Position numbers and translations under genes: made by a program. This document shows, piece by piece, positions 2,074 through 36,800 of a stretch of DNA of 47,078 nt. A model generated the notes under the pieces. The model saw only the letters and a list, made by a program, of their open reading frames with translations. It ran no database searches and was not told the origin of the DNA. Within the stretch, counting starts at the first letter, position 1. Each line of letters starts with the position of its first letter. Source of the stretch: Arcicella sp. (GTDB lineage: Bacteria; Bacteroidota; Bacteroidia; Cytophagales; Spirosomataceae); NCBI GenBank assembly GCA_040403275.1, contig JBBAKZ010000001.1, forward strand, positions 1 through 47,078. The letters run 5' to 3'.

Positions 2074-2084
2074 TTTTTTCAATT

Positions 2085-3557: not shown

Positions 3558-3567
3558 ATGGGTTAAA

Positions 3568-12785: not shown

Positions 12786-14342
12786 TCACTTAGGGTTAAT
12801 CACCTCCTTATTCTTAAAATCTTTATTCAATATTCCGCTAATTATTTTTGACCAAATCTGATAGCCTTTTTCATTGAAATGGAGCTTATCATTGATGTAC
12901 AAATCGGGTTGATATTTACCATCCTTACTTAAAAGTTGCGGCATTGTTTCGATAAAATGCAAATTAGGGGTATTTTGGCAGTAATTCTTAAACAGTTCAT
13001 TAGCTTCTACAATTTTATCTTGCACTGCCCAGCGCCGTTCATTAGGCGAAATAGCAATATAGTAAATTGACGTAGTTGGGTGTTTTTGACGAACTTTTTC
13101 CACTACATACTTGAAGGCCTCTAATACTTGTTCTGGCGATTTATCCTGATTACCTGCGGTAATATCATTGCTTCCCGAATAAAACACAATGGCTTTGAAT
13201 GAGTGATTGGCCATAATTCGGTCAATATAATAGGCCATTTCAGCGATATTTGACCCACCAAATCCTCGGTGAATAACTTCATGAGGAGCTAAATCTTGCT
13301 TAATTGTTTTCCATAAGCGAATGTATGAACTCCCTGTAACCAAAATCGCATTAGAAGAATAAGATTCAGTTTTATCCAGCTTTTCAAATTCCTGAATATC
13401 CTTTTCAAACCTCAAAACGCCGACCGTATTATTTCCTTTATTTAATTGCGTAAACAGCCAAAGACCAATTTCGTCTAAAGCCTGTTTTTGTTTGTTTTTA
13501 TCACTATCCAACGTATGTCCAGCCTTATCAAAAAGCTTTAATCCTGTGGGAATTCCTAAAGATAATGCCCTATAAAACAAAATCGAGCTACCATATTTGA
13601 AACCATGATAAGCGTAAGAAGAATCAAAAGGAACGGTTTTATCGCCTGTGCCATGTACGCTAAAAAGTGGCACATCACCCGAATTTATCCAACGATAATC
13701 AATCATCGCTCCCCAACAATTAACCACTGCATTTACTTTTGATGAATAGCCTTCGTTTCCACTTTTTCCTTCCAAACTACCCAATTTTGAGGTATTTATA
13801 TAAGTTGGCACCTCATTTTGGTCTAAATAGGCCAAGTGCATAGCCACTTTCGAACCAGCCGAACCACCCATGATATAGATTTTTGAGGTATCAATCCCAT
13901 ATTTTTCAGCATTTCTTCTGAAAAAGCGAACGGCAGCTTTGGCATCTTGCACACCTCTGTACATCGCCTCAAAATACGAGGTATCGTTCTTTGGCTTTTC
14001 AATTCCTAAACGGTAATTGATAGAACTACTCACATAACCTCTTTTGGCCAAACCGGTACAAAATAAAATCGGATAGCCCGTACTTTTATCGCCATTGACA
14101 AATCCGCCACCATGAACAAATATGACTAAAGGACGCTTTCTGAGGGTATCACTCATTGGCGAGTAAATATCTAAAAATAATTTTTCAGACTCATTATTCA
14201 TATTTTTTGACTCACCATATTGAATGTTTTTGAGGGAATCAATAGACATGTAAACCTCATTTTTAAAGCGTTGAGGTTTTTGGGCGAACGACAAATGGCA
14301 AGTAAAAAACAAGCTTAAGCCAAGGAGAAAAAGTTTATTCAT
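12786..14342 (-). CDS. Secreted bifunctional esterase: alpha/beta carboxylesterase + SGNH/GDSL domain
   Basis: Signal peptide; HGGGF oxyanion motif, GGSAG nucleophile, HGTGD, GH; then GSSYI, HRGFGGS, GSND, DKLH (SGNH blocks). Confidence 0.88.
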   Translation of the reverse strand: MNKLFLLGLSLFFTCHLSFAQKPQRFKNEVYMSIDSLKNIQYGESKNMNNESEKLFLDIYSPMSDTLRKRPLVIFVHGGGFVNGDKSTGYPILFCTGLAKRGYVSSSINYRLGIEKPKNDTSYFEAMYRGVQDAKAAVRFFRRNAEKYGIDTSKIYIMGGSAGSKVAMHLAYLDQNEVPTYINTSKLGSLEGKSGNEGYSSKVNAVVNCWGAMIDYRWINSGDVPLFSVHGTGDKTVPFDSSYAYHGFKYGSSILFYRALSLGIPTGLKLFDKAGHTLDSDKNKQKQALDEIGLWLFTQLNKGNNTVGVLRFEKDIQEFEKLDKTESYSSNAILVTGSSYIRLWKTIKQDLAPHEVIHRGFGGSNIAEMAYYIDRIMANHSFKAIVFYSGSNDITAGNQDKSPEQVLEAFKYVVEKVRQKHPTTSIYYIAISPNERRWAVQDKIVEANELFKNYCQNTPNLHFIETMPQLLSKDGKYQPDLYINDKLHFNEKGYQIWSKIISGILNKDFKNKEVINPK

Positions 14343-14356
14343 TTTAAAGTAGTTAG

Positions 14357-14474
14357 TGCCTAAAACTGCAAAATTAGGCTATTATTTTATTTCTTATCAA
14401 AGTATTTTACCAATTCGTATTTATTCAAATTCAAGACTTTCATTTTTTCTAATAAAGGCAAATAGGGTTTGTAT
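14357..14474. repeat. Direct repeat copy 1: orphan duplicate of the GH50-like gene 3' end plus downstream DNA
   Basis: Matches 17299-17416 with 5 mismatches in 118 bp; the minus strand reads YKPYLPLLEKMKVLNLNKYELVKYFDKK*. Confidence 0.92.
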
Positions 14475-17257
14475 CAATAATTAACAAAAAACTTAATAGC
14501 TTGACTTAATTTGTCAAAAGTTACTCTTAAAAAATAAATACCGCTATTGAGTTTAATATTAATTTGCTCTTTGTTTGCGTTAGAACTTGTTTGAACTTTG
14601 CTGTAAATACATTTTCCGTTCAAATCAAAAACTTCTATTTCCCATAATTTATGTTGTTGCGGTAGTTCTACCCAAAATGTACCTTCATTTGGATTGGGAT
14701 ATAATTTGATATTTAGGTTGTTATTATCTTGTTCAATTCCTGTAATTATAATGGCGTCAGATTCTGAAAAACAGCCATTTTCAATTACTTTAACTGTGTA
14801 AGCCCCTGAACTAAATCCATTAAAATATTGTCCGGTAGCATCTTTTATCGGAATGCCTCCTAAATACCACTGATTGTTAATGGCACTACTTGATTTTAAT
14901 GCTGTATTTTCTATTAAAACTGTTGGTTTAGGTGGTTTAGGATTCACTAAAACCGTCGTAGTGGTAATTGTGGAACATGCATTGATATCAGTAACTTTTA
15001 AGGTATAAATACCTGAAAAAGAAGTTGTAAGATTTGGAATATTTGGATTTTGTTGGGACGACATAAAACCGTTTGGTCCCGTCCAAGCATAAGCAATCCC
15101 ACCATCTCCCCTTAAATTTAATGTTTCCCCTGCACAGATTGTTCCACCGCCATTTATAAGTGCCGTTGGGATTGAAAGCGTAACTTTGATTACCGAACGA
15201 GGCGAGTTTTCTACATTATTTACTGAACTTTTGCAACTCACGTAATAACTCGTGGCTGAATTTAGACTTGGGGTTGTATAGGAATTTCCAGTCGCTAATA
15301 AATTTCCTCCAACTTCCGAATCATACCATAGCGGTACATCGCTACCACCACAGTTAGCTTGCAAAGTCGTAGAACTAGCCGTACAACAACATAGATTTTT
15401 ATCGGCAAGCACAGGTGCATTTGTTTCGTGAGCCCCAATGTCCGGTGCATTTTTATAAAGTGGATTAGACCAATAATCCAAACCTCCGTTATTTGGAATT
15501 ACAACACCGCTGTTGATGGCTGGTGATGTACTTTTTAAACGATATCCATTTAGGGTATTAATGCCAATATTACCGATGCCCGGACTTACAAAAAGCGGGT
15601 CAGTAGTAATTTTAAAAGCATCGCTCGGTTCGTTTACGGGATGGCTACCGTAAAATAAATTATGGCTAAAGCTCCGTGTCTGAACTCCTGTTCCAGTGCC
15701 AAATCCGTATTTTGCACCAGTCTTTTCATTACTTATGTTATAAATAATGTTATTATAAAAATTGTAGGTATGGTTGGTTCGACCATTTTCGTGAATAATG
15801 TTTGGGCTTTTCCCCGCACCAATATAAAAAGTATTGTTATAAATCTCATTTCCAGCCGATGGATAATTAAAGAATATTAAATCTCCTAAATCATTTTGGC
15901 TAATATTATAACGTACCGTAGTTCCTGCATCATTTGGGTCTGGAATTCCTGAGTTTACCTCCGATTGCGAACGAGCGTTACAGCCCCAAAACAAGCCTTC
16001 TGAATTATCATGACTATAACTGTATTGAAAAATAATGCCAACACTACCCAAATCGGCATCATACATACTGCCATCAATTGTACCACCTGTGGTAGAAGTG
16101 GCTCTATTCAAATAACCTTCATTGTATTGAAAAACAGTTCCTTTACAACGGGCTGTAAACATCGTATTCCCCGTAGTTTTAATGGCAGTTTCATAACACA
16201 CATTGCGTTCAATTAGACCTGTCTCGTCTGCCATTCGAATAATTATCGCATTTTTTGCAATGTGATGAATGGTATTATTTTTTATCAATAAGTTAGTATT
16301 TCGGCGGTCGTACCAGTTTTGATATTCAACTACATCGGCTGGATTTAAACTTTTTTGCCCTCCTGGATAAAAAACGTTCCATTCATTATCAAAAGTCAAA
16401 CCGGTATTATCACAATAAGCAATCGTACATCCATCAATCAAAATATCATTGAAACGTGATTTATCATTTGGACCCTCGGTATCCAAAACAGCGAAATAAA
16501 TTCCACCGGTTCGTTTTGGAATTGCCCCATTTATGGCGGTGCTTCCGCTACCATCTTGCCCTCTAACATGGTGAATATTTAGGTTTTTTAAATAAATATG
16601 GTTGGCCGTTCCAAAACCAGAAATGGCCACAAAAACGCCCCGCCTGTCTCCTCCGGTTGACACATCAAAATCACCAATTAAGCCTGGATAATTGGTGATT
16701 TCGAGGTCGCTTACTTCCCAAAATTGCTGATTTTCGAGGTAAATAGTTGCTTTTCCCGTAATGCCAATACCATTGATAATAGGATTTGCCCCATTCCCGT
16801 ATTTTCCAATAATAGTTGGTTCTGCGGATGTTCCTAAGCCTTTTGGAATTAATTGACCCGACCAAGTTTCACCAGATTTAAAAAAAATACGACTTCCCGC
16901 TGAAAAAATTAATGAATTAACTTTGCTGATTGATTTCCAAGGAAAAGTCAAAGAACCGTTGTTAGCGTCATTTCCATTGGTGGCGTCAACATAATAATCA
17001 GACTTTGGAACTGTGATTGCCAATGCAGAAACGGAAACGTTAACGAAAGCAAAACTTTGTTTTTCATCACCAATATCAGTTGGCATTCCGAAAACCCATT
17101 CCCTAGTGTTATCGTAAACACCTAAAAATGTATGAAACTCATCTGTTTCAAGCGAATTTGATTGCGTAAAACTTTCTGTTAAAACCGTTTTTTGTCCATA
17201 CATATTTACAGACCAATTAAATACCGAACAAATCAGAAAAAGCAATATTTTTTTCAT
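14474..17257 (-). CDS. T9SS-secreted right-handed parallel beta-helix protein (putative glycan-degrading enzyme) with Ig-like domains
   Basis: YYVDATNGNDANNG...PWKSI start of the beta-helix; WYDSEVGGNLL and YAWTGPNGF Ig-like repeats; C-terminal LYPNP...GIYFLRV T9SS type-A sorting domain. Confidence 0.8.
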   Translation of the reverse strand: MKKILLFLICSVFNWSVNMYGQKTVLTESFTQSNSLETDEFHTFLGVYDNTREWVFGMPTDIGDEKQSFAFVNVSVSALAITVPKSDYYVDATNGNDANNGSLTFPWKSISKVNSLIFSAGSRIFFKSGETWSGQLIPKGLGTSAEPTIIGKYGNGANPIINGIGITGKATIYLENQQFWEVSDLEITNYPGLIGDFDVSTGGDRRGVFVAISGFGTANHIYLKNLNIHHVRGQDGSGSTAINGAIPKRTGGIYFAVLDTEGPNDKSRFNDILIDGCTIAYCDNTGLTFDNEWNVFYPGGQKSLNPADVVEYQNWYDRRNTNLLIKNNTIHHIAKNAIIIRMADETGLIERNVCYETAIKTTGNTMFTARCKGTVFQYNEGYLNRATSTTGGTIDGSMYDADLGSVGIIFQYSYSHDNSEGLFWGCNARSQSEVNSGIPDPNDAGTTVRYNISQNDLGDLIFFNYPSAGNEIYNNTFYIGAGKSPNIIHENGRTNHTYNFYNNIIYNISNEKTGAKYGFGTGTGVQTRSFSHNLFYGSHPVNEPSDAFKITTDPLFVSPGIGNIGINTLNGYRLKSTSPAINSGVVIPNNGGLDYWSNPLYKNAPDIGAHETNAPVLADKNLCCCTASSTTLQANCGGSDVPLWYDSEVGGNLLATGNSYTTPSLNSATSYYVSCKSSVNNVENSPRSVIKVTLSIPTALINGGGTICAGETLNLRGDGGIAYAWTGPNGFMSSQQNPNIPNLTTSFSGIYTLKVTDINACSTITTTTVLVNPKPPKPTVLIENTALKSSSAINNQWYLGGIPIKDATGQYFNGFSSGAYTVKVIENGCFSESDAIIITGIEQDNNNLNIKLYPNPNEGTFWVELPQQHKLWEIEVFDLNGKCIYSKVQTSSNANKEQINIKLNSGIYFLRVTFDKLSQAIKFFVNY

Positions 17258-17298
17258 CTTCTAAGTGCTTAAGATTTACATTAATTGCAAAAATTGTT

Positions 17299-17416
17299 TG
17301 CCCAAAACTGCAAAACTAGGCTATTATTTCATTTCTTATCAAAGTATTTTATCAATTCGTATTTATTCAAATTCAAGACTTTCATTTTGTCTAATAAAGG
17401 CAAATAGGGTTTGTAT
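17299..17416. repeat. Direct repeat copy 2 (functional 3' end of the GH50-like gene)
   Basis: Offset 2942 bp from copy 1; reads YKPYLPLLDKMKVLNLNKYELIKYFDKK*. Confidence 0.92.
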
Positions 17417-18735
17417 TGATAGCTTACTAAGCCCTTGTTTGAATCACGGTTCGATTCGTCGGCTGAGAGGTCGGTTGGGTCATTATCTTGATATCGAAAC
17501 CAATGCCAACCTACGCAATTTGGAGCTTTCAGCAATTCCATGCAGAAATTTTGATAGTGAATTCCACGGTCGGCTTGGGTTCTAACTAACCAACCCGCCC
17601 CGGTTTTGTTTTCCATGCCTGAATCTTCGGCTTTTGTATAAAATTCGGTAATGAAAAACGGGCGATTACACCATGCAGCCCAATCACTAATGTTTTTGGC
17701 TTCGGGTTGCCAATAGCCATAATAGTTGATAGAAACAATATCAAGGTGCTTTTCGGCTGCTTTCAAAATCGCTTGTACGTTTTTTGCAGAACTATGCAAA
17801 CGACTCCCAAGGTATAAATGATTTGGGTCATATTTATTCAAAGCTGCCTTGATTTCGCCGTAATAAATATCTGCCACGTAGCCCAAAAATGCCTCTTTTT
17901 GTCCTTTCGTTAATTTATTTTTATCAAATCCATTTTCACTAGCCCATTTTTCGAGCGCCAATACATCGGCGGAGCTTTTATCAGTCTTGGCTAAAATCTT
18001 ATTGAGTAAATCATTGGTAAAAGTCAATTCATTGTCTGAAAAATGACCTAAGAGGTTTTTATCTGATGCTGTGGCCAACACCATTTTTTTGGCGTGTTCA
18101 TCACAAAATAGTTTAAAGCTTGGCTCAAAAATCAATGATAAACTATTTTCTTTTTCTGCTCCAATTTTCTTATTTCTTTTTGAAAATTCTCCCAAAAAAC
18201 TCAACATTGTGGTATAAACAATCGGTTTTTCTGGATGTGAAACATTGTATTTTTGAATCAATTCCACTTCCGACCACGCTCCAATCACATTAAAGTCAGC
18301 CTCTTTTATAAGTTTATTGGTTTGCACCAGCCATTCTTCGGGCGTGCCAAATTTAGCTTTTAGAGAAAGTTCATTATTAGGCGATTTCCCCATTCGAACA
18401 CTATTGACGGCAGCGGTAACAAAATAATGCCCTTCAGGGTCAATTATCCACCAACGATTTCCAATCTTTTCGGTTCTAAAAAAACCCGTTACTTTCGCAT
18501 TTGAAAGTAAATCCCCCCCGTATTTATCCGTTTTCACTTTTGTAATTGGGCTGAAATTGGGTAGGATATCTACCGTTTTGCTTTGGTAAGTTTTCCAATC
18601 TGAAATAACAATATTACGCAAGCTATCTCGTCCCCAAGTTTTGGCTTGAATGCTTATCATCCCGTTCATATTTTGTTGAGCAAAACAAGTATTGAGAATA
18701 ATAAAGCAAAAGAGTGTGGTTAGGTATTTTTTCAT
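17329..18735 (-). CDS. GH50-like (beta-agarase-related, clan GH-A) glycoside hydrolase, substrate unknown
   Basis: TGFFRTEKIGNRWWIIDPEG, GHFSDNEL (acid/base), YLGSR, SINYY, ITEF (nucleophile), VGWHWFRYQD. Likely start MKKYL at 18735 gives a signal peptide (ORF track starts at 18792). Confidence 0.78.
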   Translation of the reverse strand: MKKYLTTLFCFIILNTCFAQQNMNGMISIQAKTWGRDSLRNIVISDWKTYQSKTVDILPNFSPITKVKTDKYGGDLLSNAKVTGFFRTEKIGNRWWIIDPEGHYFVTAAVNSVRMGKSPNNELSLKAKFGTPEEWLVQTNKLIKEADFNVIGAWSEVELIQKYNVSHPEKPIVYTTMLSFLGEFSKRNKKIGAEKENSLSLIFEPSFKLFCDEHAKKMVLATASDKNLLGHFSDNELTFTNDLLNKILAKTDKSSADVLALEKWASENGFDKNKLTKGQKEAFLGYVADIYYGEIKAALNKYDPNHLYLGSRLHSSAKNVQAILKAAEKHLDIVSINYYGYWQPEAKNISDWAAWCNRPFFITEFYTKAEDSGMENKTGAGWLVRTQADRGIHYQNFCMELLKAPNCVGWHWFRYQDNDPTDLSADESNRDSNKGLVSYQYKPYLPLLDKMKVLNLNKYELIKYFDKK

Positions 18736-18853
18736 TGATAATAAGTTTTGTAATAATGTTACTTGTTGAAGTATAATTTTAGTCATATTCATAATTGATC
18801 ATAATATCTTCAACTATCATTAATGAAATACGGACGCTTATCCGTTTGAAATT

Positions 18854-19615
18854 TTAGGGGTAAATGATCTTTACCATAACATACAATAAAGAGGGGCATA
18901 ATAAACAGCCCAATCCTGTGTAAAAGGTGGCGGTCATTGCTCCATAAGGCACCAATTTAGGGTCAGTGGCGGCTAATCCAGCGGCGGTTCCACTGGTTGT
19001 ACCCATCAATCCGCCATAAATCATGGCTGCTTGTGGATTATTTAAACCAATATGACGGGCGATAAATGGCGTACCGATGGTTACTAAGATTGATTTAACT
19101 ACCCCAGCGGCAATACTGATGGCAATTACCTCGGAACTTGCTCCAACTGCCGTGCCCGTAACTGGACCCACTACAAAAGTGCAAGCGCCTGCGCCAATGG
19201 TTGTAATACTGGCTGCATCGTGAAAACCCATACCTACGGCGATGACCGCCCCAGCCAAAAATGATAAAATAACACCAACGATAAGCGAGGTTACACCCGC
19301 CAAGCCTGTTTTTTTGATTACCGCAAAACTTGCTCCCATGGCCGTAGAAACGATGGCAAAATCACGGAACATGGCACCGCCCATGAATTCAAATCCTGAT
19401 AATTGTTTGATGTCGGCAATGCCCTTGTTTCCTCCCGTAATCTTACCCCCAATGTATGCCAGTACTAAGCCCGAAAAAATAGCAATGGCAGAACCGGGTA
19501 TTTTTTTGTTGGTGAGGGTTTTGGAAAGCCATTCGGAAAAATACATGACGATGCCCGTCACTAAAAACGCAACAATTAATCCATTTTTTACCAATAAAGT
19601 GGTTATGTACTCCAT
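18854..19615 (-). CDS. madM: Malonate transporter subunit MadM
   Basis: 253-aa hydrophobic protein; GSAIAI, MGGAMFRDFAIV, VGPVTG, GGLMGTTSG, LVPYGAMTATFYTGLGCLL. Confidence 0.92.
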   Translation of the reverse strand: MEYITTLLVKNGLIVAFLVTGIVMYFSEWLSKTLTNKKIPGSAIAIFSGLVLAYIGGKITGGNKGIADIKQLSGFEFMGGAMFRDFAIVSTAMGASFAVIKKTGLAGVTSLIVGVILSFLAGAVIAVGMGFHDAASITTIGAGACTFVVGPVTGTAVGASSEVIAISIAAGVVKSILVTIGTPFIARHIGLNNPQAAMIYGGLMGTTSGTAAGLAATDPKLVPYGAMTATFYTGLGCLLCPSLLYVMVKIIYP

Positions 19616-19618
19616 GAC

Positions 19619-19981
19619 TTATGGCTCTTTTTTTGATAATTTTGAAATATACGGCATCGTTGCTAAACAAATAAGCATGGGAATAACGCCTACCAAAACA
19701 GCAACGACACCACTTGAAATAGCAACTCGCACATTTTGTATCGACGACATTGCCACAATGATTGGAATGTACATTTTGCTCCAAAAATTCACCCCTTCCT
19801 CCATTTCTTTATGAAATAGTCCCTTTTTTTCCAACTCATTTTGGGTTAAAATAAGTAGTAACATGGCGAAGCCAACTCCCCCCACATTGGCATCAATGTG
19901 TAACCAACGACCTAACGTTTCGCCTGTTATTTGTCCAATAATGAAACAGCCGGCTAGTAGGGCAACCCCTCTTAATAACAT
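19619..19981 (-). CDS. madL: Malonate transporter subunit MadL
   Basis: GVALLAGC, ANVGGVGFAMLLL, FWSKMYIPIIVAM, QNV; directly upstream of madM. Confidence 0.92.
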   Translation of the reverse strand: MLLRGVALLAGCFIIGQITGETLGRWLHIDANVGGVGFAMLLLILTQNELEKKGLFHKEMEEGVNFWSKMYIPIIVAMSSIQNVRVAISSGVVAVLVGVIPMLICLATMPYISKLSKKEP

Positions 19982-20015
19982 ATCTATTTGGGTTTATTTT
20001 ATTTTTTGTGGTGAT

Positions 20016-21518
20016 TTAAGAATTAACCAAGAACTGTTTTTTAACCTCATTTTTAGTAACTTTTCCCATGGCATTGCGAGGCAGCTCATCGGTAAGTTCA
20101 TACCTTCGAGGTGTTTTGTAGGCAGGCATTTGAGTTCGCATCCAGTTATTCAATTCTGCTAAATCAATTTGTTCATCCTTCGGAACAATCACTGCAACGA
20201 CTAATTCACCCCATTCGTCATCGTCAATTCTAACCACGCAACAATCTGAAATTAAAGGGTATGTACGCAAAACTTCCTCTATTTCCAAAGCCGAAATTTT
20301 ATAGCCACCCGATTTAATAATATCCACCGAATTTCTTCCCAGAATACGATAACCACCTACTTCATCAACGGTGGCTACATCACCAGTTTTAAACCAACCA
20401 TCTTTAGTAAATGACTCGGCTGTAGCTTCTGGTTTATTCCAATATTCACCAAATACGTTTGCCCCCTTTACTTGTATTTCTCCGATTTCAGTTGGTGAGA
20501 TTTCCTGATCTTGTTCATCAGCCAAACGAACTTGAACGCCAGGCAACGGATAACCAACATGACCAGCGTAACGCTTACCTTTAAGCGGATTGCTCAATGC
20601 CATGCCAATTTCTGTCATGCCATAACGCTCTAAAAGCGTATGGTTGCTAATTATCTGCCATTTTTCCATAATTGAAACTGGCAAAGCCGCCGAACCAGCA
20701 ATCATTAAGCGTAAACTTTCCATGATTTTGGTTAATTCATTTTGGTCATCAACAGGAAGCGTTTCCCAATAAGCAATGAGTTTAAAGTAAATAGTTGGCA
20801 CCGCCATAAATACATTTATTTTACCTCGCTTGAAAGCATCAAAAATACCTTTTGCAGAAAAACTGGGCAAAAACTCGCAACAAGCCCCAGCCCATAACGC
20901 ACAACTGACTACATTGACAATTCCGTGTACGTGGTGAAGTGGCAAAACACAAATGGAATGGTCATTTTTTGACCATTCCCAAGCTTCAATTAAGGATTCA
21001 ATTTGGGCATTCAAATTTTGATGAGTAGTTACAACCCCTTTTGGTAAATTGGTTGTACCGCTGGTATAAAGAATCATTGCCCGCCGACTTTCACGAATGG
21101 CTGGTAAAACCACGTTTTCTTGTGCATGGATTAAATCGTCTGTGCCTAAAACAATAAATCGCAATGATTTTTCAAGCGCAAGGGGTTGTAATAAATCAGC
21201 ATATTCGGGAGAAACAACCAATATTTTTGCTCCAGAATTTTCAATTGTATAGGTCAATGAAGGTAAAGGATAGCTCAAACACAAAGGCACGGTAATTCCA
21301 CCTGCCTGCCAAATTCCCCATTGTACCCGCACATATTCAAAGCCAGGGGATACCATAAAAGCAACACAAGTTTCATTGAGATCAGTTTGTTCACCAAGTA
21401 AAACATTGGAAAATTTACCTGACTCATATAATAATTGTTTATACGAGTACGAACGAGTATCATCAATAATGGCGGTTTTTTCAAGGTTTTTATGTGCTTC
21501 CTTAACGATTTTGAGCAT
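20016..21518 (-). CDS. matB: Malonyl-CoA synthetase (MatB/ACSF3-like acyl-CoA synthetase)
   Basis: YTSGTTNLPKG, LPLHHVHG, FMAVPTIY, GSAAL, ERYGMTE, DIIKSGGYKISALEIE, PRNAMGK; adjacent to madLM. Confidence 0.85.
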   Translation of the reverse strand: MLKIVKEAHKNLEKTAIIDDTRSYSYKQLLYESGKFSNVLLGEQTDLNETCVAFMVSPGFEYVRVQWGIWQAGGITVPLCLSYPLPSLTYTIENSGAKILVVSPEYADLLQPLALEKSLRFIVLGTDDLIHAQENVVLPAIRESRRAMILYTSGTTNLPKGVVTTHQNLNAQIESLIEAWEWSKNDHSICVLPLHHVHGIVNVVSCALWAGACCEFLPSFSAKGIFDAFKRGKINVFMAVPTIYFKLIAYWETLPVDDQNELTKIMESLRLMIAGSAALPVSIMEKWQIISNHTLLERYGMTEIGMALSNPLKGKRYAGHVGYPLPGVQVRLADEQDQEISPTEIGEIQVKGANVFGEYWNKPEATAESFTKDGWFKTGDVATVDEVGGYRILGRNSVDIIKSGGYKISALEIEEVLRTYPLISDCCVVRIDDDEWGELVVAVIVPKDEQIDLAELNNWMRTQMPAYKTPRRYELTDELPRNAMGKVTKNEVKKQFLVNS

Positions 21519-21623
21519 AAATATCTATTTGCTTTTTTTAGGGATATTTTTTTAAACAATTTAAAAAAAACTTGTACAGAATAATTATTGGAAGACATCT
21601 TATCTTCCAATAATTATGATGAA

Positions 21624-23297
21624 TTAATACCCCGGATTTTGTGGCATCACTTTGGTTAAATTAGCATCAATTACCGTTTGTGGAATTGGCATAATAGTAT
21701 CTCTCAGGCTAATTAACGCCCCCGCATTGATATTATATTTCTTGGTTCGGTCAAACCAGGTTTTGGTTCTTAGCAGTGTGTATCTTCTATGTTCTTCCGT
21801 TATTAATTCTCTCGAACGCTCATCCAAAATAAAATCAAGTGTTACTTGCGAGGCAGTTATAGGCGTGGCCTTAGCTCTATTACGTAAAATATTGATGGTA
21901 GTTGCTGCATCCGCCAATTCGCCTAATTTGAATTGAGCTTCGGCTAATAACAAATAAGTTTCAGCCAAACGCAAGTAAATAATGTCATTGAAATTGCTTG
22001 ATTGTTGTAAATCGGATGCAATTGAAGGAGCCCAGTCCCATTTTCGGGTACTTGGCCAAGTTTGAGCAGTGGTTGAATTCGTAACCGGTTCACTGCCCGT
22101 AAAGCTCAATTTTACAATATCTCCCAACTTAGCTCCTGTTGGTAATGAAGCAGCATTATTCATTGCGTAGGAATATCTCCATGCAAAATCTCCACCACGT
22201 TCATCGGTTGATCCATACAGTGAGAGTGCATATTTTGTTACGCCAAATCTCCCAATTCCTCTTCCACCATTCTCGACTGAAAAGGTGATAGGAGTTTTAC
22301 CACTAACCGAAATCCTTTCATAACGATTTACCCACCAGCGTCGCATGATACAAGCAGTTGCTCCAGGGGATAAATATTCATTTTGTAGTACGTACAATGC
22401 TTCGGTATTGCCCTCGCTTCTATTAGAATTTCCATCAATGAACATATCGGTAAATGGTGTTCCTGGCAAACTTTTATTTACGCCATAACGTGCCGTTACT
22501 AATTTGAACAAACCTGCATTTACCACTGATTGAGCTTTTTGTTTGGCTTTTATGTTATCACCAATTGTCAGATATAATTCAGCTAAATAATGTGTTGCCA
22601 CTGCTCTGGGAAAGCGTGCTGCATTAGGTGAAGTTTCGGCAATGTTAGCTTCGGCGTACAATAAATCCTCTTCCATTGCTTTTCTGACCGTACCGATTGG
22701 AGTGCGTTCCCAGTCCGTTTTTATCGAATTCCCAGTAGATTCAGTTAAATTAAGCGGTACATTACCAAACATAAAAGTTAAATGACGATACGCCCAAGCT
22801 CTTACCAGTCTAGCTTCCCCCACGATTTGTTTTTTTTCTGTTTCCGTCCACTTAATAGATGGATTTTCAGCTCTATCAATAATCGTATTTGCTGCGTTAA
22901 TTGTCTGATAAAGCCATTGCCAAACATTCTGAATGTATGGAACGGCTGGATTAAGCGTCACACCGAAAGTATTAAATACCCGCTCGGGTTGTTGGGCTCC
23001 CGCTGGAAAAGGGCTGTAAGCATTGTCAACACCAACGAATGCTGGCGTAATGTACATATCATTGGTAGAAGCAACTACAACGGGATTTGAATTTGCGCCA
23101 TCAATGCCTGCTCTTTCGAGTCTTATTAGATTATATAATCCATAAAGACCCGCCTCGAAACCTGTTTTGTCCACATAGAGGTTGTCTGGAGCAATGATAT
23201 TTACGGGTTGTTCTATTAAAAAATCTTCTTTACAGCCAGTTGTCGTAAAACTGGCAATTAAAGTGACCAAAAATATTTTTATCGTATTATTTTTCAT
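21624..23297 (-). CDS. susD: SusD/RagB family glycan-binding lipoprotein
   Basis: Lipobox TTGC; GEARLVRAWAY, LRLAETYLLLAEA, ILDERSREL. Likely start MKNN at 23297. Confidence 0.93.
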   Translation of the reverse strand: MKNNTIKIFLVTLIASFTTTGCKEDFLIEQPVNIIAPDNLYVDKTGFEAGLYGLYNLIRLERAGIDGANSNPVVVASTNDMYITPAFVGVDNAYSPFPAGAQQPERVFNTFGVTLNPAVPYIQNVWQWLYQTINAANTIIDRAENPSIKWTETEKKQIVGEARLVRAWAYRHLTFMFGNVPLNLTESTGNSIKTDWERTPIGTVRKAMEEDLLYAEANIAETSPNAARFPRAVATHYLAELYLTIGDNIKAKQKAQSVVNAGLFKLVTARYGVNKSLPGTPFTDMFIDGNSNRSEGNTEALYVLQNEYLSPGATACIMRRWWVNRYERISVSGKTPITFSVENGGRGIGRFGVTKYALSLYGSTDERGGDFAWRYSYAMNNAASLPTGAKLGDIVKLSFTGSEPVTNSTTAQTWPSTRKWDWAPSIASDLQQSSNFNDIIYLRLAETYLLLAEAQFKLGELADAATTINILRNRAKATPITASQVTLDFILDERSRELITEEHRRYTLLRTKTWFDRTKKYNINAGALISLRDTIMPIPQTVIDANLTKVMPQNPGY

Positions 23298-23348
23298 TTT
23301 TCTAAATTTTAAAAAAGAAACCATTAGGGGTTGAGTGATTCAATTACT

Positions 23349-26300
23349 TTAAAAACCGAAGTTCATTCCAAAAATAAGTTCACGTTGTAATGGTACGTCT
23401 AATTGATTATTAATTTCGGGGTCAAGCCCTGAATATTTTGTAAACGTTGCTAAATTCCGACCTGTTACATAAAACTTTAACTTACTCAATTTCAACCGAT
23501 TGACTACCTTATTTGGCAATTGATAAGCCAATGAAACATCTTTCAAGCGAGCGAAACTCGCATCTTCGTAAAATCGAACGTTAAAAGTGTTTGCCAGACC
23601 ATCGTTAGAAAAGTGAGTACCTGAAGTATTAGTGGGAGACCACCAATCTTTTTTAGTGGTATTTCTACGAACATCGCCAAAAACATCGTCCTGCTCTAAC
23701 GGATTTTCTTTAGTTACACCCAGAAGTCCGTTAAAGAAAACCATTAGACTGAATCCTTTGTAACTGAAAGTATTGGAGAATCCAAAAACTACTTTTGGAT
23801 CGCTGTATCCCAAAATAGTTCTATCAAGGGTTGTGCTAATTTTTTTATCACCATCTACATCAACTACTTTCACGTAACCGGGTTTACTTGTTGTTTGAGC
23901 CGAAGCATCCACGTCAGCCTGTGTTGTAAAAATTCCGCCGTTTTGTAGTCCATAGATAGTTCTGATGGGTTGCCCGATGAACCAACCATTCGCCACATCG
24001 TCTCGGCCATCGCCGTAAAGGTCAACTATTCTGTTTTTGTTATGAGAAAGATTAAGATTTGTCGTCCATTTAAAGTCATGGGCATTATAATTAATTGAAG
24101 TGATACCCAACTCTATCCCGCTATTGGCAGTTTTTCCTATGTTTTGCAGTATTCTATCAAACCCTTGTACGGATGAAATGATTCGATTGAGTAATAAATC
24201 TTGGGTTTCACCAGCGTACACGTCTATTGAACCTTGTACACGATTGTTAAATAATCCAAAATCAAGACCAATTGTCTTTGATGTAGTAGATTCCCATCCT
24301 AATTTTTCATTAGCCAATTTATTAGGAACATACCCTGTTATAACCGTTGCACCATTCAAATATTGACGAGTTGCCAGCGTTGCCAAAGACTGATAACTTG
24401 ATACGGCTTGATTACCATTAACGCCATAAGATCCTCTGAGTTTTAGGTTACTAATAAATTTAATGTTTTGCATAAAGGCCTCTTTTGAGATATTCCAACC
24501 GAAAGCCAGCGAAGGGAAAACCCCGTATTTTGAATTCACGCCAAAACCTGAAAAACCATCCCTTCGGGCAGTAACCGTTAATAAATATCGGCTATCGTAA
24601 CTGTAATTTAGGCGTCCCATTTGTGATACTAAATTTTGCGTATAATTCTCATGGGATGGCGTGAGCAAAGTAGCCGCATTCATTTGATAATTGGTCAATA
24701 CATCATTGGGAAAACCCACACCAACTAGTTGGTCTCGGTCATAATCGTGACTTTGAGAGCTGTATAATGCTGTTATGTTGATATTATGCTTACCAAAATC
24801 TCTTGCATAGGATATGATATTTTCTACCGTAAAATTTCTTTCGATTGAATTAAAATTAGTGGCACTTCCTTTCTTTTCATAGCCAACAGCCGTACCCACA
24901 CCGTAGTAGGTTTTTCGTAAATTATTGTCGTATTCAACCCCAGTATTCAGCTTATAGGAAAGCCCCTTTACGAAAGGGATATCAATTTTGACATTATTGG
25001 CACTAAATATTCGATAGCCGTTATCTTTATTGATAGCCTGAGTTTCTCCGAGAGGATTACCCGCAGTGTTATATTCTGGCCAAGCATAGACGGTTGGCGT
25101 ACCGTCTTCGTTAAAAGCGGTGGTTAATGGGTTCATAACGTTTGCCCCAAACTGTCCTGCAAAATCCGCCGGACGACCACTTCGGTCTTGAAAGGAAAAC
25201 TGAGTTGATGAGCCAATTGTAAGCCAGGGTGTAACTTTTACATCAATATTTGGACGAATAGAATATCGTTTAAATTGGTCATTTACGGCAATTCCTTGCA
25301 CGTTTAAATATGTACCACCTAAGTAAAACGAGATTTTATCCGTTCCGCCCGCCAACGATAAGGTATGCTGTGACCTTGTACCTTGTTGCGTAGCCAAACT
25401 GTACCAATCAATCGCTTTCCCAGCATCATATATTGCTTGTTCGGATGGTGTTATTGAATTGGCGGGAATATTTAACCTGTTTTTCTTGAAATCATAAAAC
25501 TCGGTACCTGTCATTAAATTTGGTTTATTGGCAATATTTTGAACGCCATAAAAACCATCGTAGGTAATATTTAATTTCCCCTTTTTTCCTTGCTTGGAAG
25601 TTACCAGTATTACTCCATTAGAAGCTCTTGCACCGTAAATCGCCGCCGCCGATGCATCTTTCAAGACTTCAATGGATTCTACATCATTGGGATTTATTTC
25701 CGAAATACCGCCCGTGTAGGGAATTCCGTCCCAAATAATCAATGGGTTTGTGCTGGCACTGATTGAATTTCTACCTCTAATCAGAATAGAATTATCATTG
25801 CCTTCTGCTCCGCCACTATTGGTATTAATTTGTAAGCCAGGTATTGCCCCCTGCAAAGCTTGAGCAATGTTGGTATTGGGAAGTTGCTCTAATCTTTCTC
25901 TTGAAACCGAAGCAACAGAACCCGTTACATCGCTTTTCTTTTGGCTACCGTAGCCCACAACAATTACTTCGTCGAGTACTTTTGTATTTACTTTTAAACC
26001 AACATTGAAAATGGTTTGATTTCCGACAACTATTTCTTGTTGTTCGTAACCCACAAAACTAAAAACTACAATCGATTTTTCGTTTGGAACATTCAGTCTA
26101 AAATCCCCTTTACTATCGGTTGTTGTACCGTCATTTGTTCCTTTAATGAAAATATTTACCCCAGGCAAAGCCTCGTTGTTAGCAGAATCACTAACTTTTC
26201 CAGAAATCAGTTTCTCAACAATTAAGTTCTTTTCAGTATTACGAGCTCCTTGGGCTTCTGAAAGTAGATTTCTATCAGCGTTTTGGAGTAAAGAATTTAT

Positions 26301-26705
26301 TTGATTGGGCGTTGATGCTTCTTGTATTTGAGCCTCCAGTTGAGCCGTTTTCTTATTTCGCTTTTCACCCAGAACCAAATAAGTACCCTCCTTAATTTTC
26401 TTATACCTTAACCCTAACGGGCTTAGAATATTACCTAAATTACGCTCAAATTTTGATTCGAAGTTCAATAAATTGACTGATACAGATAAGCATTCAACAA
26501 CGTTATCTTCAAACAAAATATCAATTTTGTAATGCGATTTCAAGTCACGAAGGGCATCTTTTAGTAAGATTGATGTTACTTTCGTTGAACGAGGAACTTG
26601 CGGTTCAGCATACGCTAACATTTGGGCAATGCTGGTGTTTTGACCTATAAACAGCATCATTAGCATAAAAAAAGTCTTCCAGACTAATCGTAGTTTTTGT
26701 TTCAT
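23349..26705 (-). CDS. susC: SusC/RagA TonB-dependent transducer with N-terminal signalling extension
   Basis: VVVGYG-type motif (VIVVGYGSQKK), INPNDVESIEVLKDASAAAIYGARASNGVILVT, LGWE, C-terminal FGF; long N-terminal extension consistent with FecR coupling. Confidence 0.96.
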   Translation of the reverse strand: MKQKLRLVWKTFFMLMMLFIGQNTSIAQMLAYAEPQVPRSTKVTSILLKDALRDLKSHYKIDILFEDNVVECLSVSVNLLNFESKFERNLGNILSPLGLRYKKIKEGTYLVLGEKRNKKTAQLEAQIQEASTPNQINSLLQNADRNLLSEAQGARNTEKNLIVEKLISGKVSDSANNEALPGVNIFIKGTNDGTTTDSKGDFRLNVPNEKSIVVFSFVGYEQQEIVVGNQTIFNVGLKVNTKVLDEVIVVGYGSQKKSDVTGSVASVSRERLEQLPNTNIAQALQGAIPGLQINTNSGGAEGNDNSILIRGRNSISASTNPLIIWDGIPYTGGISEINPNDVESIEVLKDASAAAIYGARASNGVILVTSKQGKKGKLNITYDGFYGVQNIANKPNLMTGTEFYDFKKNRLNIPANSITPSEQAIYDAGKAIDWYSLATQQGTRSQHTLSLAGGTDKISFYLGGTYLNVQGIAVNDQFKRYSIRPNIDVKVTPWLTIGSSTQFSFQDRSGRPADFAGQFGANVMNPLTTAFNEDGTPTVYAWPEYNTAGNPLGETQAINKDNGYRIFSANNVKIDIPFVKGLSYKLNTGVEYDNNLRKTYYGVGTAVGYEKKGSATNFNSIERNFTVENIISYARDFGKHNINITALYSSQSHDYDRDQLVGVGFPNDVLTNYQMNAATLLTPSHENYTQNLVSQMGRLNYSYDSRYLLTVTARRDGFSGFGVNSKYGVFPSLAFGWNISKEAFMQNIKFISNLKLRGSYGVNGNQAVSSYQSLATLATRQYLNGATVITGYVPNKLANEKLGWESTTSKTIGLDFGLFNNRVQGSIDVYAGETQDLLLNRIISSVQGFDRILQNIGKTANSGIELGITSINYNAHDFKWTTNLNLSHNKNRIVDLYGDGRDDVANGWFIGQPIRTIYGLQNGGIFTTQADVDASAQTTSKPGYVKVVDVDGDKKISTTLDRTILGYSDPKVVFGFSNTFSYKGFSLMVFFNGLLGVTKENPLEQDDVFGDVRRNTTKKDWWSPTNTSGTHFSNDGLANTFNVRFYEDASFARLKDVSLAYQLPNKVVNRLKLSKLKFYVTGRNLATFTKYSGLDPEINNQLDVPLQRELIFGMNFGF

Positions 26706-26726
26706 AATGAGAAATTAGTAATTAAA

Positions 26727-27722
26727 TTATTCAAAAAAAGTAACATTATTATTTTGGCGATTGTAATTGATTTCTAGTAATTCGGCAATGACTTGGAGTA
26801 GCTCATCAGCGTTTTTGGCGTGAAAAGTACCACTGATTGTCCTTTTTGCTAAAAGTTCATCTCTAAATTCAATATGTATATCAAAGTTTTCTTGAATCAT
26901 GGTTGCCACTGCTAATAATGAGGTTTCCTCAAATACAAACCGTTGTTCTTTCCAGGCTGAGAAGATTTGAGGCTGTGACACTTCTTTCAAATTTGCATGA
27001 CCTTTTTGGTCTATCATTACCAAATCGCCTGGTTTCATGGTAATTTTTTTGGCTAATTTTCCGTCGATATAATTAAGTTGAATTTTCCCTTTGTTAAGTA
27101 CAACTTTAGCCTCTTTCTGACGGGCATAAACGTTGAATTCTGTTCCTAAAACTTCTATTTCAAAGTTCTTGTTGGTTTTTACGATAAACCGCTTGTCGTC
27201 AAGGGTGTGTTTAACTGAAAAATTGGCTTCGCCACTTAGAAAAACCTCACGGATTGAATTATCAAATCCAAATCGGGGAACTTTTAGAAAAGAATTGGCA
27301 TTCAGGGTGACTTGGCTTCCATCCGAAAGTTCGATTTTTCTAATTTCACCAAAAGCAGTTTTATAATGATGATAAAGAATATTGTCTTTGCCTAGAATAA
27401 AACTCACTGAAAACAGCAATAGTAGCACAGCAGCAGCGGCAAACCAAGAACGATTTTTATAATAATAATTGATGGCTGGCCGTTTTCGGGAACTCATCAT
27501 AAAATCCTCTGATTGTTCAATTTTAAGTAAAGATTTTTCAAGTGCAGTATCCACATCGGGTAATAATTGGATGAATTGATTTTCCCATTCGTCGAGCCAT
27601 TGGTAGTATAATTCCTTATTATTTTCTTCTTGTATCCAAGCTTCAATTAGCTTCTTTTGCAGTGGTGTAGTTCGACCAGCAAAATTTTCAAATAATATAT
27701 TTTTATTAACTGATTTGTTCAT
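26727..27722 (-). CDS. FecR-family anti-sigma factor
   Basis: One TM helix; LSDGSQVTLNANS, REVFLSGEANF, VLGTEFNV. Confidence 0.93.
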   Translation of the reverse strand: MNKSVNKNILFENFAGRTTPLQKKLIEAWIQEENNKELYYQWLDEWENQFIQLLPDVDTALEKSLLKIEQSEDFMMSSRKRPAINYYYKNRSWFAAAAVLLLLFSVSFILGKDNILYHHYKTAFGEIRKIELSDGSQVTLNANSFLKVPRFGFDNSIREVFLSGEANFSVKHTLDDKRFIVKTNKNFEIEVLGTEFNVYARQKEAKVVLNKGKIQLNYIDGKLAKKITMKPGDLVMIDQKGHANLKEVSQPQIFSAWKEQRFVFEETSLLAVATMIQENFDIHIEFRDELLAKRTISGTFHAKNADELLQVIAELLEINYNRQNNNVTFFE

Positions 27723-27783
27723 TTTAATCTCATTTAAAAGAATTCATTGATGTGGTATACACCCATTTTTAGGATTGCAAATG

Positions 27784-28410
27784 CTAATATCCCTCTAATG
27801 ACTTTCGCATTTGAGCAAGTGCCTTCATGATGTGTGCTTCCACGGTTTTTAGGGCTATACCTAACTCATTGGCTATTTCTCTGTTTTTTCTATTTTCAAA
27901 ACGACTCATTAAAAATACACTTTGACATTGAGGTGGTAGTGCCTTGATGCCGGTTTCAATTTTCTGAAAAAGTTCATCATATTGTAGAATAGTTTGGGGA
28001 GTATCCTCGTGTACTTGATTTAGATTATTTTCGTGAATAGTATCAATGTCGTTATCTTTTTTAAACTCCCATTGTAAATAATTAATGGCACGATTTCGCA
28101 CCGCCGCATATAGATAAGCTCTGAAAGAAGTGTTTATTTGCTCATGAACTTTGTTTTTCCACAGAACCAAGAAAACATCTCCTACAATATCTTCGGCAGT
28201 TTCTTTTGAGTAAACAAACCTTACAGCATGACTACATAAGGCACGATAATATTTCCTAAACAGCAGTTCATAGCCTTTACTTGGATTTTCTCTGAAGGAT
28301 TCTCGAATAAAAATTTCGGAATCCAAAATTTTACTGTGGTTGCCCTCCTTATTTAGTATTAGCAATTTTGTCTCAATATGGTTGGGTTGTTTTTTTAATT
28401 TATCAGTCAT
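27784..28410 (-). CDS. ECF RNA polymerase sigma-70 factor (Bacteroidota PUL type)
   Basis: LFRKYYRALC, AEDIVGDVF, LPPQCQSVFLMSR, EIANELGIALKTVEAH. Confidence 0.93.
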   Translation of the reverse strand: MTDKLKKQPNHIETKLLILNKEGNHSKILDSEIFIRESFRENPSKGYELLFRKYYRALCSHAVRFVYSKETAEDIVGDVFLVLWKNKVHEQINTSFRAYLYAAVRNRAINYLQWEFKKDNDIDTIHENNLNQVHEDTPQTILQYDELFQKIETGIKALPPQCQSVFLMSRFENRKNREIANELGIALKTVEAHIMKALAQMRKSLEGY

Positions 28411-33887: not shown

Positions 33888-36800
33888 ATGAAAGTAAATC
33901 CACTAAGTTTCAGTACAAAAAATGAAAATTTAGATTTTATCAAACATAAAACGTTAATTGAGCTATTCAAAAAGACAGTTGAATCACATAAAGAAAAATT
34001 AGCGCTCAATTTTAATAATACGGAATTAAGTTACTTAGAACTTGACCAATACAGTGACTTTGTTGCCCAATCACTCATTGATTCAGGGACAATCCAGGGC
34101 GATTTGATTGGCGTCTATCTACCCCGTGGGCTTGATTTGCACATTGTAATTTTGGGTATTTTAAAAGCAGGGGCTGGCTACATTCCCTTTGATATAGAAA
34201 CACCAACCGAAAGAGTGATTGACATACTTTCGAGACTAAACATAAAAAGATGTTTTTCTGAGACCAATATCTCCCCAAAATTTAAGAATATTACGCCTGT
34301 TAGGCATAAGTTACGCAACGGTAATTGCCTTGATTTTTCAAGCCCATCCGAAATAGCCTATATTATCTTTACGTCAGGAACCACTGGCAAACCTAAAGGC
34401 ATTCCCATTAAACATTCCCAAATTTGCCATCTCATTCAAGCTGAGAACAGCATTTTAGGCATAAATTCCCAGGACCGTGTATATCAAGGTTTTTCAGTAT
34501 CGTTTGATATGTGGTTTGAAGAAACGTGGATAAGTTATCTCGTGGGGGCAACGCTCTATATTTCTGATGCGATTACAGCCAAATCTTTCGATAAACTGCA
34601 TCAGTTCATGAATCAACACCAAATTAGTGTGTTGCACGCCGTCCCAAGTTTATTAGCACTGATAGATAATCAAATCCCTACTTTACGACTCATAAATTCG
34701 GGCGGTGAGGCTTGTAACAATAATATCCTCAATAAGTGGACAAAACCTGAAATTACTTTTTTTAATAGTTACGGTCCAACCGAAACAACCGTTTCTGCCT
34801 CTTTCATTCAACTCAAAGCAGGAGATGATATTTCCATTGGTTTTCCATTGCCAAATTATGGTATGTGTATCGTGGATGAAAACCTCGAAGCAGTCCCCGT
34901 TGGAACATCGGGTGAGTTGGTTATTAGCGGTATAGGACTAAGCGAAGGGTATCTGAACCTGCCTGAATTAACAGAAAAAGTCTTTTTAGCCAAACCCAAT
35001 TCACTTTCGGAAATGGTTGGAGATAGAATTTATCTATCGGGCGATATCGGAATGATGAAACCAGATGGCAGTTTTAAGGTTTTTGGTAGGAAAGACGACC
35101 AAATAAAAATCAGAGGATACCGAGTAGAATTAGGCGAAATTGAGGCGAAATTAAATGCTATTTTCACCATAAAAAAAGCAGTAGTAGATCTCCAGAAAAT
35201 CAATGACATTGACCAATTGATTGCCTTCGTAATATGCAATCCAAACGAAAATTTAAATGAAAAATATTTAAGGAATGAATTAAATAGGATTTTACCCGTG
35301 TATATGGTTCCTAATTTCTTTGTTGAAGTACAAGATTTTAGTTACCTCACCAGCGGGAAAGTCAATAAAAAAGCATTGCCCCCATTTAATCCAGTTGTTA
35401 ATTCAAATGAACAAAATACTGAATTTATCACAGAATATGCTTCCAACCCTTTATTAGAACAGATTGCGACTAAACTATCAAATTTATTTCCTGGACAAAA
35501 TATTAAGAAAGAACTTGACTTTTTTAATGGTTTGGGCGGACATTCACTCTTGGCCGCTTATTTTGTTTCCGAGGTCAGAGCAATAAAAGGGATGAAGAAT
35601 ATTTCAATCATGGATGTTTATGAGCATCGTCCCATTGAAAAACTATTTTCTTATTGGAATACAAATACGGCGCAGGTAAAAGCCGTAGAAAACGAAGAAT
35701 TTCAAGCCGTTTCTCGCCTCAATTATTATGGCTGTTGGCTCGCCCAAACTATCGCCCTTGTGTTTATTTATGGCTTGGTAGCCGCCCAAATATTCTTGCC
35801 CTATTTGGGATATTACGTAGCCGCCCTTGAATTAGATGGTCACATAATTCCCATTATTATTGCGATTCTGCTTTACTGTACCGTCATCCCACTTTCATCT
35901 TTTTTAGTTATACTGATAAAAAAATTCTTTATTGGTAAATTGGTCGAAGGCAATTTTCCACTATGGGGATTAACTTATTTTAAATGGTGGTTGCAGAAGC
36001 GTTTGTTTTCGTTAATTCCTAAAGAAACGGTCAGTAACACTCCTTTATTCCCCATTTTATTAAATTGGTTAGGGGTAAAGGTTGCTCAGGATGCTCAGTT
36101 AAGTAATTTTGAAATTGGAGCGGAAGATTTAGTTTCAATCGGAGAAAATGTAACGATTAGTTCAAATGTTATGTTAAACAACGCTTGGGTAGAAAATGGG
36201 TTATTCAAATTACGTAAAATAACGATTGAAGATGATGCCTACATCGGAACAAGTGCGGTTGTAAATGGAGGGTGTACTTTGAAAAGAAGTAGTGAATTAA
36301 AAGATTTATCATGTTTAGCTAAAGACCAAATATTACCAGCATTGCAAACATGGGGAGGTAGTCCAGCAAAACCTATTTTTACCAGAGAACAATTTGCTGA
36401 CCGAAATATTATTCCAGAGAAAACTTTCAAGAAATACAAGTTGGTGTTTTTTATGTTAGTTTTCCTGTTTCCTATTCTTATAATTTTACCGTTAACGCCT
36501 TCCATTATCATCCTTTACACGTTGGATGAAAATGCAGATTTTTATTCGTTTTATTACCTTTTCCAAACGCCAATTTTTTCATTATCCTATCTGCTTTTAT
36601 TTCTTTTGGAAGTTATTTTATTAAGCAAAATATTGAGAAAAAATATAAAAATAGGCACATTTTCGATTTACAGCTCCACGTACCTCCGAATATGGTTTTT
36701 AGATCAACTATTTTCTCTTTCCTTGAATGTAATTAAACCCATTTTTGCCACGGTATTCATTACATCAGTATATCGCTTGCTCGGTGCAAAAGTTGGTGAA

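Follow-up and report, generated by a model that had tools for sequence, protein, structure and literature searches.

The stretch analysed here, called the window throughout, comprises 47,078 nt of Arcicella sp. (assembly GCA_040403275.1, contig JBBAKZ010000001.1, positions 1 to 47,078) and holds a polysaccharide utilisation locus (PUL) in which genes for malonate uptake and activation stand between susD and the genes for carbohydrate-active enzymes. The original prediction described a co-oriented, tightly spaced run of ten genes, and the run is as described: all the open reading frames lie on the minus strand without a single internal stop, in the order extracytoplasmic function (ECF) sigma factor, fecR, susC, susD, matB, madL, madM, GH50-like gene, beta-helix gene and esterase, with intergenic gaps of 3-131 nt. 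The adjoining susC and susD (TIGR04056, PF07980), co-located with carbohydrate-active enzymes (GH50-like, GH136-like), an esterase and an ECF sigma/FecR regulator, identify the locus as a PUL. The order susD-matB-madL-madM-GH50 recurs in two more assemblies (L090 and L199/L030) and is, therefore, no assembly artefact.

The regulators are an ECF sigma factor (27784..28410; TIGR02985, 158 bits, cut-off 126) and a FecR-type anti-sigma factor (26727..27722; PF04773 and PF16344, above the Pfam cut-offs). They are followed by a SusC TonB-dependent transporter (23349..26705; TIGR04056, 839 bits, cut-off 368), which has an N-terminal extension such that the TIGR04056 match begins at residue 167, and by a SusD lipoprotein (21624..23324; PF07980 and PF14322, above the Pfam cut-offs), which has its likely start, judged by eye, at 23297 and belongs to a SusD cluster common to 25 loci. 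A stem-loop (21581..21617, minus strand) lies directly after the susD stop. Bacteroidota PULs under ECF-sigma/anti-sigma control have the same succession of sigma, fecR, susC and susD, then a hairpin and carbohydrate-active enzymes, but the window PUL differs in having an organic-acid importer and a coenzyme A (CoA) ligase inside the operon. We rejected the hairpin as a boundary of the malonate cassette, or as a sign of its separate transcription, because this generic PUL feature also occurs with no cassette downstream; similar post-susD hairpins precede a GH50 gene directly in L170, L173, L138, L092 and L112. A sigma-70 promoter and terminator scan, with a model that does not extend to Bacteroidota promoters, stayed at chance (55 vs 56.4; 12 vs 13.7). 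The GC content of matB and madL (0.39) falls within that of the PUL genes (0.34-0.40), and that of madM is higher (0.45).

The first gene of the cassette encodes a MatB-type (methyl)malonyl-CoA ligase (20016..21518), an AMP-binding protein with 4fuq (E 5e-76) and 3nyq (E 7e-75) as its top solved matches and, by eye, no signal peptide. It carries the motif ERYGMTE at residue 297, which is kept in all 90 MatB sequences examined and is assigned to the malonyl-CoA site in the accessible text of PMC12476969. The name MatB, given in the original prediction, is thus upheld by the closest solved relatives, which are MatB enzymes, and by this motif, but not by the NCBIfam malonyl-CoA synthase model, whose cut-off the protein does not reach. 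The names of the transporter subunits stand without such a reservation: MadL (19619..19981; TIGR00807, 130 bits, cut-off 113; PF03817 above cut-off) and MadM (18854..19615; TIGR00808, 344 bits, cut-off 236; PF03818 above cut-off) are encoded by adjacent genes with a 3-nt spacer. The madM gene is present as a single copy in the window genome (84.9% complete). Those of its relatives that bear a name come from Emticicia, Aquirufa, Haliscomenobacter and Saprospiraceae, which puts the source organism in Bacteroidota.

Malonate decarboxylase (mad/mdc) operons, such as those of Malonomonas rubra and Pseudomonas, contain madLM. The window has MadL and MadM in common with them, but it has MatB and no decarboxylase alpha subunit, an absence from the locus that was correctly predicted; PF16957 was not found elsewhere in the incomplete genome either, in a search whose control was positive in 1/14. 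With the matABC genes of Rhizobium trifolii, which serve malonate import and MatB activation to malonyl-CoA (PMC12303837, accessible text), the window shares import and activation but differs in having MadLM for MatC and in placing the genes inside a PUL; MatA (PF05292) was not found in the genome, in a search whose control was silent, being detected nowhere. The same text reports that MadLM with MatB is functional in Escherichia coli.

Next in the run is a BpGH50-like glycoside hydrolase (17329..18792; likely start 18735), a predicted beta-glucuronidase with no Pfam match, for which BpGH50 (BACPLE_01683, PDB 5T3B) is both the best solved relative (E 2e-65) and the closest solved structure. 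Its predicted structure (predicted local distance difference test score 95.7) matches BpGH50 with Z 46.5 and a root-mean-square deviation of 1.9 over 420 residues at 35% identity. Membership of GH50 follows from a barrel fold nearest to GH50 structures and two conserved glutamates (E255 and E383), whose catalytic roles we take from clan GH-A motifs; K387 and N452-K453 were also noted. A C-terminal NKG is found in 119/120 homologues and in BpGH50, and its lysine would bind a uronate carboxylate. The agarase has NVG at this position, and Bacteroides uniformis beta-glucuronidase 1 carries NRKGLVS, which resembles NKG by motif and not by superposition. In Foldseek, GH2 glucuronidases rank directly behind GH50, and a profile search of PDB sequences returned beyond GH50 only one non-significant GH2 match (E 0.37).

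Two PUL-encoded GH50 enzymes are beta-D-glucuronidases according to 10.64898/2026.05.19.726164, the available part of which also gives glucanase and galactosidase activities for the family and nowhere contains the string 'malon'. The GH50 beta-glucuronidases CytfeDRAFT_4604 and AXE80_10390 can be likened to the window enzyme by motif and gene context only. BpGH50 itself has an unproven substrate and is listed with a GH105|GH154 gene in the available part of 10.1101/2023.03.30.534863; the clade of the window enzyme is distinct from it, with its own SusC/SusD and esterase. Agarase function was considered and judged unlikely because the window locus has no sulfatase or agar-type partner genes.

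The run ends with the two-domain esterase (12786..14342), and the double esterase of the original prediction is borne out. The alpha/beta-hydrolase domain has the triad S161-D234-H276 and the SGNH/GDSL domain has S339, N392, D485 and H488, so that both motif sets are complete. The L116 group keeps the N-terminal domain alone (339 aa), placed after matB; the alpha/beta domain is, therefore, the part tied to matB and a candidate malonyl esterase. Neither its sequence nor its model gave a sign of malonate specificity.

How regularly the malonate genes accompany such PULs was assessed from the GH50-like gene, which matched 15/251 genomes of the window's family and, in metagenomes, at least 329 loci, of which the best 80 were taken. 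A quick tree of 61 de-duplicated rows (all trees here are quick, with support from the Shimodaira-Hasegawa-like approximate likelihood ratio test, SH-aLRT, only) gave two clades, with all 16 matB-bearing rows in the window's clade A (SH-aLRT 98), where they are spread over several branches (9 changes vs 14.2 when shuffled). With tblastn, matB was found in 18/49 clade-A loci, madL/M in 12/49 and the esterase N-domain in 22/49, whereas matB or madLM was found in 0/53 loci of clade B. Loci too short for the tree were given a clade from identity and partner genes, and L183 was not counted in clade B since it looks like the downstream half of the clade-A locus of G423. After three later loci were added, grouping at 90% identity left 36 groups, of which 16 with less than 6 kb downstream and no matB were dropped. 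Of the 20 groups that could be evaluated, ten have matB, six of these together with madL/M; 10/21 is the fairer count because L171 spans the whole PUL without the cassette, yet fell to the short-locus rule. The original prediction had made its reading depend on orthologous PULs sharing the cassette, and the outcome is divided: half of the evaluable clade-A groups have matB and the sister clade has none, but L170, L171 and G678 are without the cassette. As judged from gene content, the link between PUL and malonate genes is real and recurrent but optional, and a chance origin of the arrangement is very unlikely.

The genes are joined in more than one way. The order susD-matB-madLM-GH50 is found in the window, L090 and L199; the L116 group has GH50-matB-esterase-madLM, L138 has GH50-GH3-uxuB-uxuA-matB-esterase-madLM, and L097 has matB-esterase upstream of susC. 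In L097, L101 and L106, matB and the esterase occur with a major facilitator superfamily (MFS) transporter and without madLM; L097 encodes two ERYGMTE ligases. Among the 19 loci from genome collections, one (L018) holds GH50-like, GH3, matB, the same double esterase, madL and madM in a different order. It was deposited as Asaia bogorensis, yet encodes SusC/SusD and proteins sorted by the type IX secretion system (T9SS), so its label or binning looks wrong. In nine of the ten matB groups the esterase is also present (in G423 on the next contig, L183), and the tenth, L092, ends inside matB. As matB nearly always comes with the esterase and the esterase also occurs without matB, this nested pattern agrees with a requirement for the esterase in opening the substrate and with optional salvage.

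Accessory genes of the relatives say something about the substrate. Clade-A loci often hold GH3, a mannonate oxidoreductase (uxuB), UxuA, UxaC and a hexuronate-type transporter, and the G423 locus adds CBM35 and a GH2 that matches B. uniformis beta-glucuronidase 1 at E 4e-206; in the window genome, uxuA, uxaC and exuT-like genes lie on other contigs. Together with the glucuronidase-like lysine of the GH50-like enzyme, these genes for glucuronate catabolism and GH2/GH3 make it likely that the PUL substrate contains glucuronate, and the fungal polymers named as candidates in the original prediction (malonogalactan and luteic acid) fit poorly for the same reason. A beta-glucan component is possible because L097 also encodes a PF11790 hydrolase. 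A separate PUL seen in gut metagenomes (L131, L133, L143, L148, L150 and L161) has susC-susD, a BACON protein, a malectin-domain GH2 and two tandem GH50-like genes, and may be a uronate-glycan locus without malonate genes.

A second family, that of G650, has madM in 4/301 genomes (G650, G810, G702 and G935), two of which, G650 and G810, hold it with matB and the double esterase, whereas G702 and G935 do not. G650 was the search seed, so that G810 is the only independent case; its genes run uxuA-uxaC-matB-esterase-madLM, and neither GH50 nor susCD is in view. Three other GH50-bearing genomes of this family are clade-A-like; in two of them the contig ends early, and the third is G678.

The MatB proteins linked to PULs cluster (2 changes vs 15.1 when shuffled, 90 rows), and that of the window is of another type than the one native to most family members. 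On the MadM tree the window, L090 and L199 stand apart from L018, L138, L215 and the L116 group, and a single PUL clade was rejected on a concatenated MatB and MadM tree of 26 rows (approximately unbiased test, p-AU 0.0004). Two recruitments of the malonate genes into PULs would, therefore, be the simplest reading, although one old association plus several losses could also account for the trees.

Within the window's family the cassette has a life outside this PUL. The madM gene exceeded its cut-off in 111/251 family genomes and in 9/401 genomes of the phylum, with the window genome counted in both, and 60 family loci were fetched with up to 20 kb around them, picked to span genera and not at random. 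In 18 of these 60 the cassette lies within 10 kb of genes for protocatechuate, hydroxybenzoate or acyl-CoA aromatic catabolism, which suggests that malonate and plant phenolics are encountered together; in L033 (8175-19385) the order is pcaH-pcaG-pcaB-pcaDC-pobA-pcaIJ-matB-madL-madM-pcaF. The loci concerned are L031, L032, L033, L034, L043, L046, L049, L051, L053 and L054, and further L061, L065, L066, L070 and L072-L075. Other neighbourhoods were also seen. Malonyl-apiosyl flavone glycosides occur in plants, and L037 (9603-14067) has an apiosidase-like gene immediately upstream of matB-madL-madM. Other, unrelated BD-FAE-type esterases (24-32% identity) adjoin free cassettes in L036 (6784-7692), L040 (6686-7594) and L046 (10338-11300), and L002, L003, L042 and L069 have madL-madM without a neighbouring matB.

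Viewed from the esterase, 7/8 genomes of the window's family that encode it have madL or madM, two in the locus and five elsewhere (G571, G634, G404, G958 and G960); in the eighth, G593, madL/madM were not found. Set against a base rate of 44%, this co-presence is no more than suggestive. G958 shows the order sigma-fecR-susC-susD-esterase and lacks GH50. L217 (8867-17457) has sigma-fecR-susC-susD with the same SusC/SusD type, then the double esterase and a GDSL protein, and no glycoside hydrolase in view.

The remaining gene of the run encodes a T9SS-secreted GH136-like beta-helix protein with an Ig-like domain (14474..17257; PF19081, PF18962). It matches lacto-N-biosidases at E 1e-21 to 6e-19 and shares with the GH136 enzyme LnbX a beta-helix and an aligned DGxxxDAD motif, but it is a distant relative that scores far below the LnbX equivalog cut-off (82 bits, cut-off 2500) and, unlike LnbX, is an optional insert. 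The gene is flanked by a direct repeat of the 3' end of the GH50-like gene and its spacer (copy 1 at 17299..17430; copy 2 at 14357..14488, 132 nt, 92% identical), a duplication also found in L090, and L091, L170 and L171 have no beta-helix gene, GH50 being joined straight to the esterase. The predicted place of the gene between GH50-like and esterase is correct, but we regard it as a late insert and do not count it as a core part of the PUL. Recombination between the repeat copies could remove it.

Directly beyond the sigma gene lie ParA and Rep3 genes, which make a plasmid or chromid the probable replicon. The segment 28850-33223, which has a perfect 25-bp inverted repeat, a 281-aa ORF without a Pfam match, ParA and Rep3, appears to be a plasmid/chromid origin beside the PUL. 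Plasmid collections returned only distant matches, with 2 records per search. Elsewhere, the window holds a xylan-type cluster (GH43-MFS-GH10, 1057-4695) and a 1312-aa AMP-binding protein with hexapeptide repeats (33888-37826).

We lean towards reading the locus as a PUL that takes up a sugar bearing glucuronate and malonyl esters and salvages the malonate. By established PUL biology, SusC/SusD would carry the substrate into the periplasm and signal via FecR to the ECF sigma factor. The alpha/beta-hydrolase domain of the esterase would remove the malonyl group, the GDSL domain would probably take off a second acyl group (e.g., acetyl), and the GH50-like enzyme would cut beta-glucuronide bonds, with the GH3 and GH2 of relatives completing the breakdown. 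Glucuronate could then enter the uxaC-uxuB-uxuA route, encoded in the locus in some relatives and elsewhere in the window genome, and MadLM would import malonate for conversion by MatB to malonyl-CoA; since the search for a malonate decarboxylase gave nothing, fatty-acid synthesis is its most likely use. As to the substrate, a glucuronate-glucose glycan (oligo- or polysaccharide) is a tentative first choice, and small glycosides from plants, namely malonyl-glucuronides of flavonoids or saponins, are slightly less likely.

Several observations weigh against this reading and should be kept in mind. The matB-madL-madM cassette is common and free-standing, with 59/60 fetched family loci lacking this PUL and only L030 having it, and half of the evaluable clade-A groups (10/20) are without matB. 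Two positives, L018 and L199, came from madM searches, which favour positives, while the close orthologues L170 and L171 (GH50 87% and 82% identical) have the PUL with no cassette in the locus. A GH50-like gene is present in 12/301 genomes of the second family, of which only G650 has madM, and G678 has PUL and esterase with no madM and with no matB at E<=1e-90. Seven groups (L171 counted) have the esterase but not matB, and the model of the esterase matches generic esterases only. A lysine after the esterase nucleophile, which might bind a carboxylate, is found in only 77/120 homologues and was rejected as a malonate signature. The ligase reaches 378 bits on NF005702 (malonyl-CoA synthase), the best of 108 NCBIfam families, under the cut-off of 558. 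Beyond GH50, GH5 mannosidases and GH2 uronidases score alike in a wide structure search (Z ~24), so that the fold alone is not decisive on the substrate. Lastly, no natural malonylated glucuronan was found in the literature searched, which covered few subscription papers.

What else might bring these genes together? Malonate that is not bound to the glycan may simply reach the cell together with it from one food source (plant leachate, for example), with the PUL promoter serving as a cue and the esterase being an acetyl esterase. We think this unlikely but give it real weight, since the cassette lies near aromatic-catabolism genes in the 18 family loci, joining plant-phenolic operons without such an esterase, and since seven groups have the esterase and no matB. 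Mere co-occurrence would not lead one to expect that PUL matB is nearly always with this esterase, usually adjacent and across gene orders, that it is absent from all sister-clade GH50 loci, or that L215 keeps uxuA-uxaC-matB-esterase-madLM as a block. Neutral hitchhiking, in which a PUL carried by a plasmid-like replicon received a mobile malonate cassette that is not linked to it in function, could draw on the adjoining ParA and Rep3, on the beta-helix gene as another insert taken by the locus and on the close orthologues without the cassette. It is largely refuted and highly improbable, given recurrence in 10 groups with several gene orders, two separate MatB/MadM lineages, replacement of MadLM by an MFS transporter in some loci and absence of the cassette from all 53 sister-clade loci.

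A smaller departure from a malonyl ester would be methylmalonyl or another short dicarboxylate as the acyl group, with the same logic otherwise. MatB enzymes accept methylmalonate too, methylmalonyl-substituted bacterial glucans exist, the window genome has biotin-dependent carboxyltransferase genes, and the ligase stays under the malonyl-CoA synthase cut-off. Against this stand MadL and MadM, which pass malonate-transporter equivalog cut-offs, and ERYGMTE in all 90 MatBs, a malonyl-CoA-site motif in the accessible text of PMC12476969; we hold this alternative to be improbable.

Among glycan decorations, PULs are known to strip acetyl, feruloyl, methyl and sulfate groups. The original prediction knew of no characterised PUL of the present kind, and our search of the literature, with the coverage given above, likewise found none described with a malonate importer or activation. 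If the malonyl-ester reading is true, the design would be new, in that the PUL would take in and activate the acyl group as well as release it. The analysis puts forward a specific protein as a possible bacterial malonyl esterase for sugars and proposes a testable activity, beta-glucuronidase, for a GH50 subfamily that is often annotated as agarase (e.g., P0064, from Rudanella paleaurantiibacter). It also predicts a malonylated, glucuronate-containing substrate in freshwater; more speculatively, an undescribed natural malonate-esterified glucuronate-glucose polysaccharide may be common there. In that case its esterase would be a founding carbohydrate malonyl-esterase, the orphan BpGH50 subfamily would gain a substrate through the GH50-like enzyme, and Bacteroidota would have a dedicated and repeatedly assembled system for the polymer.

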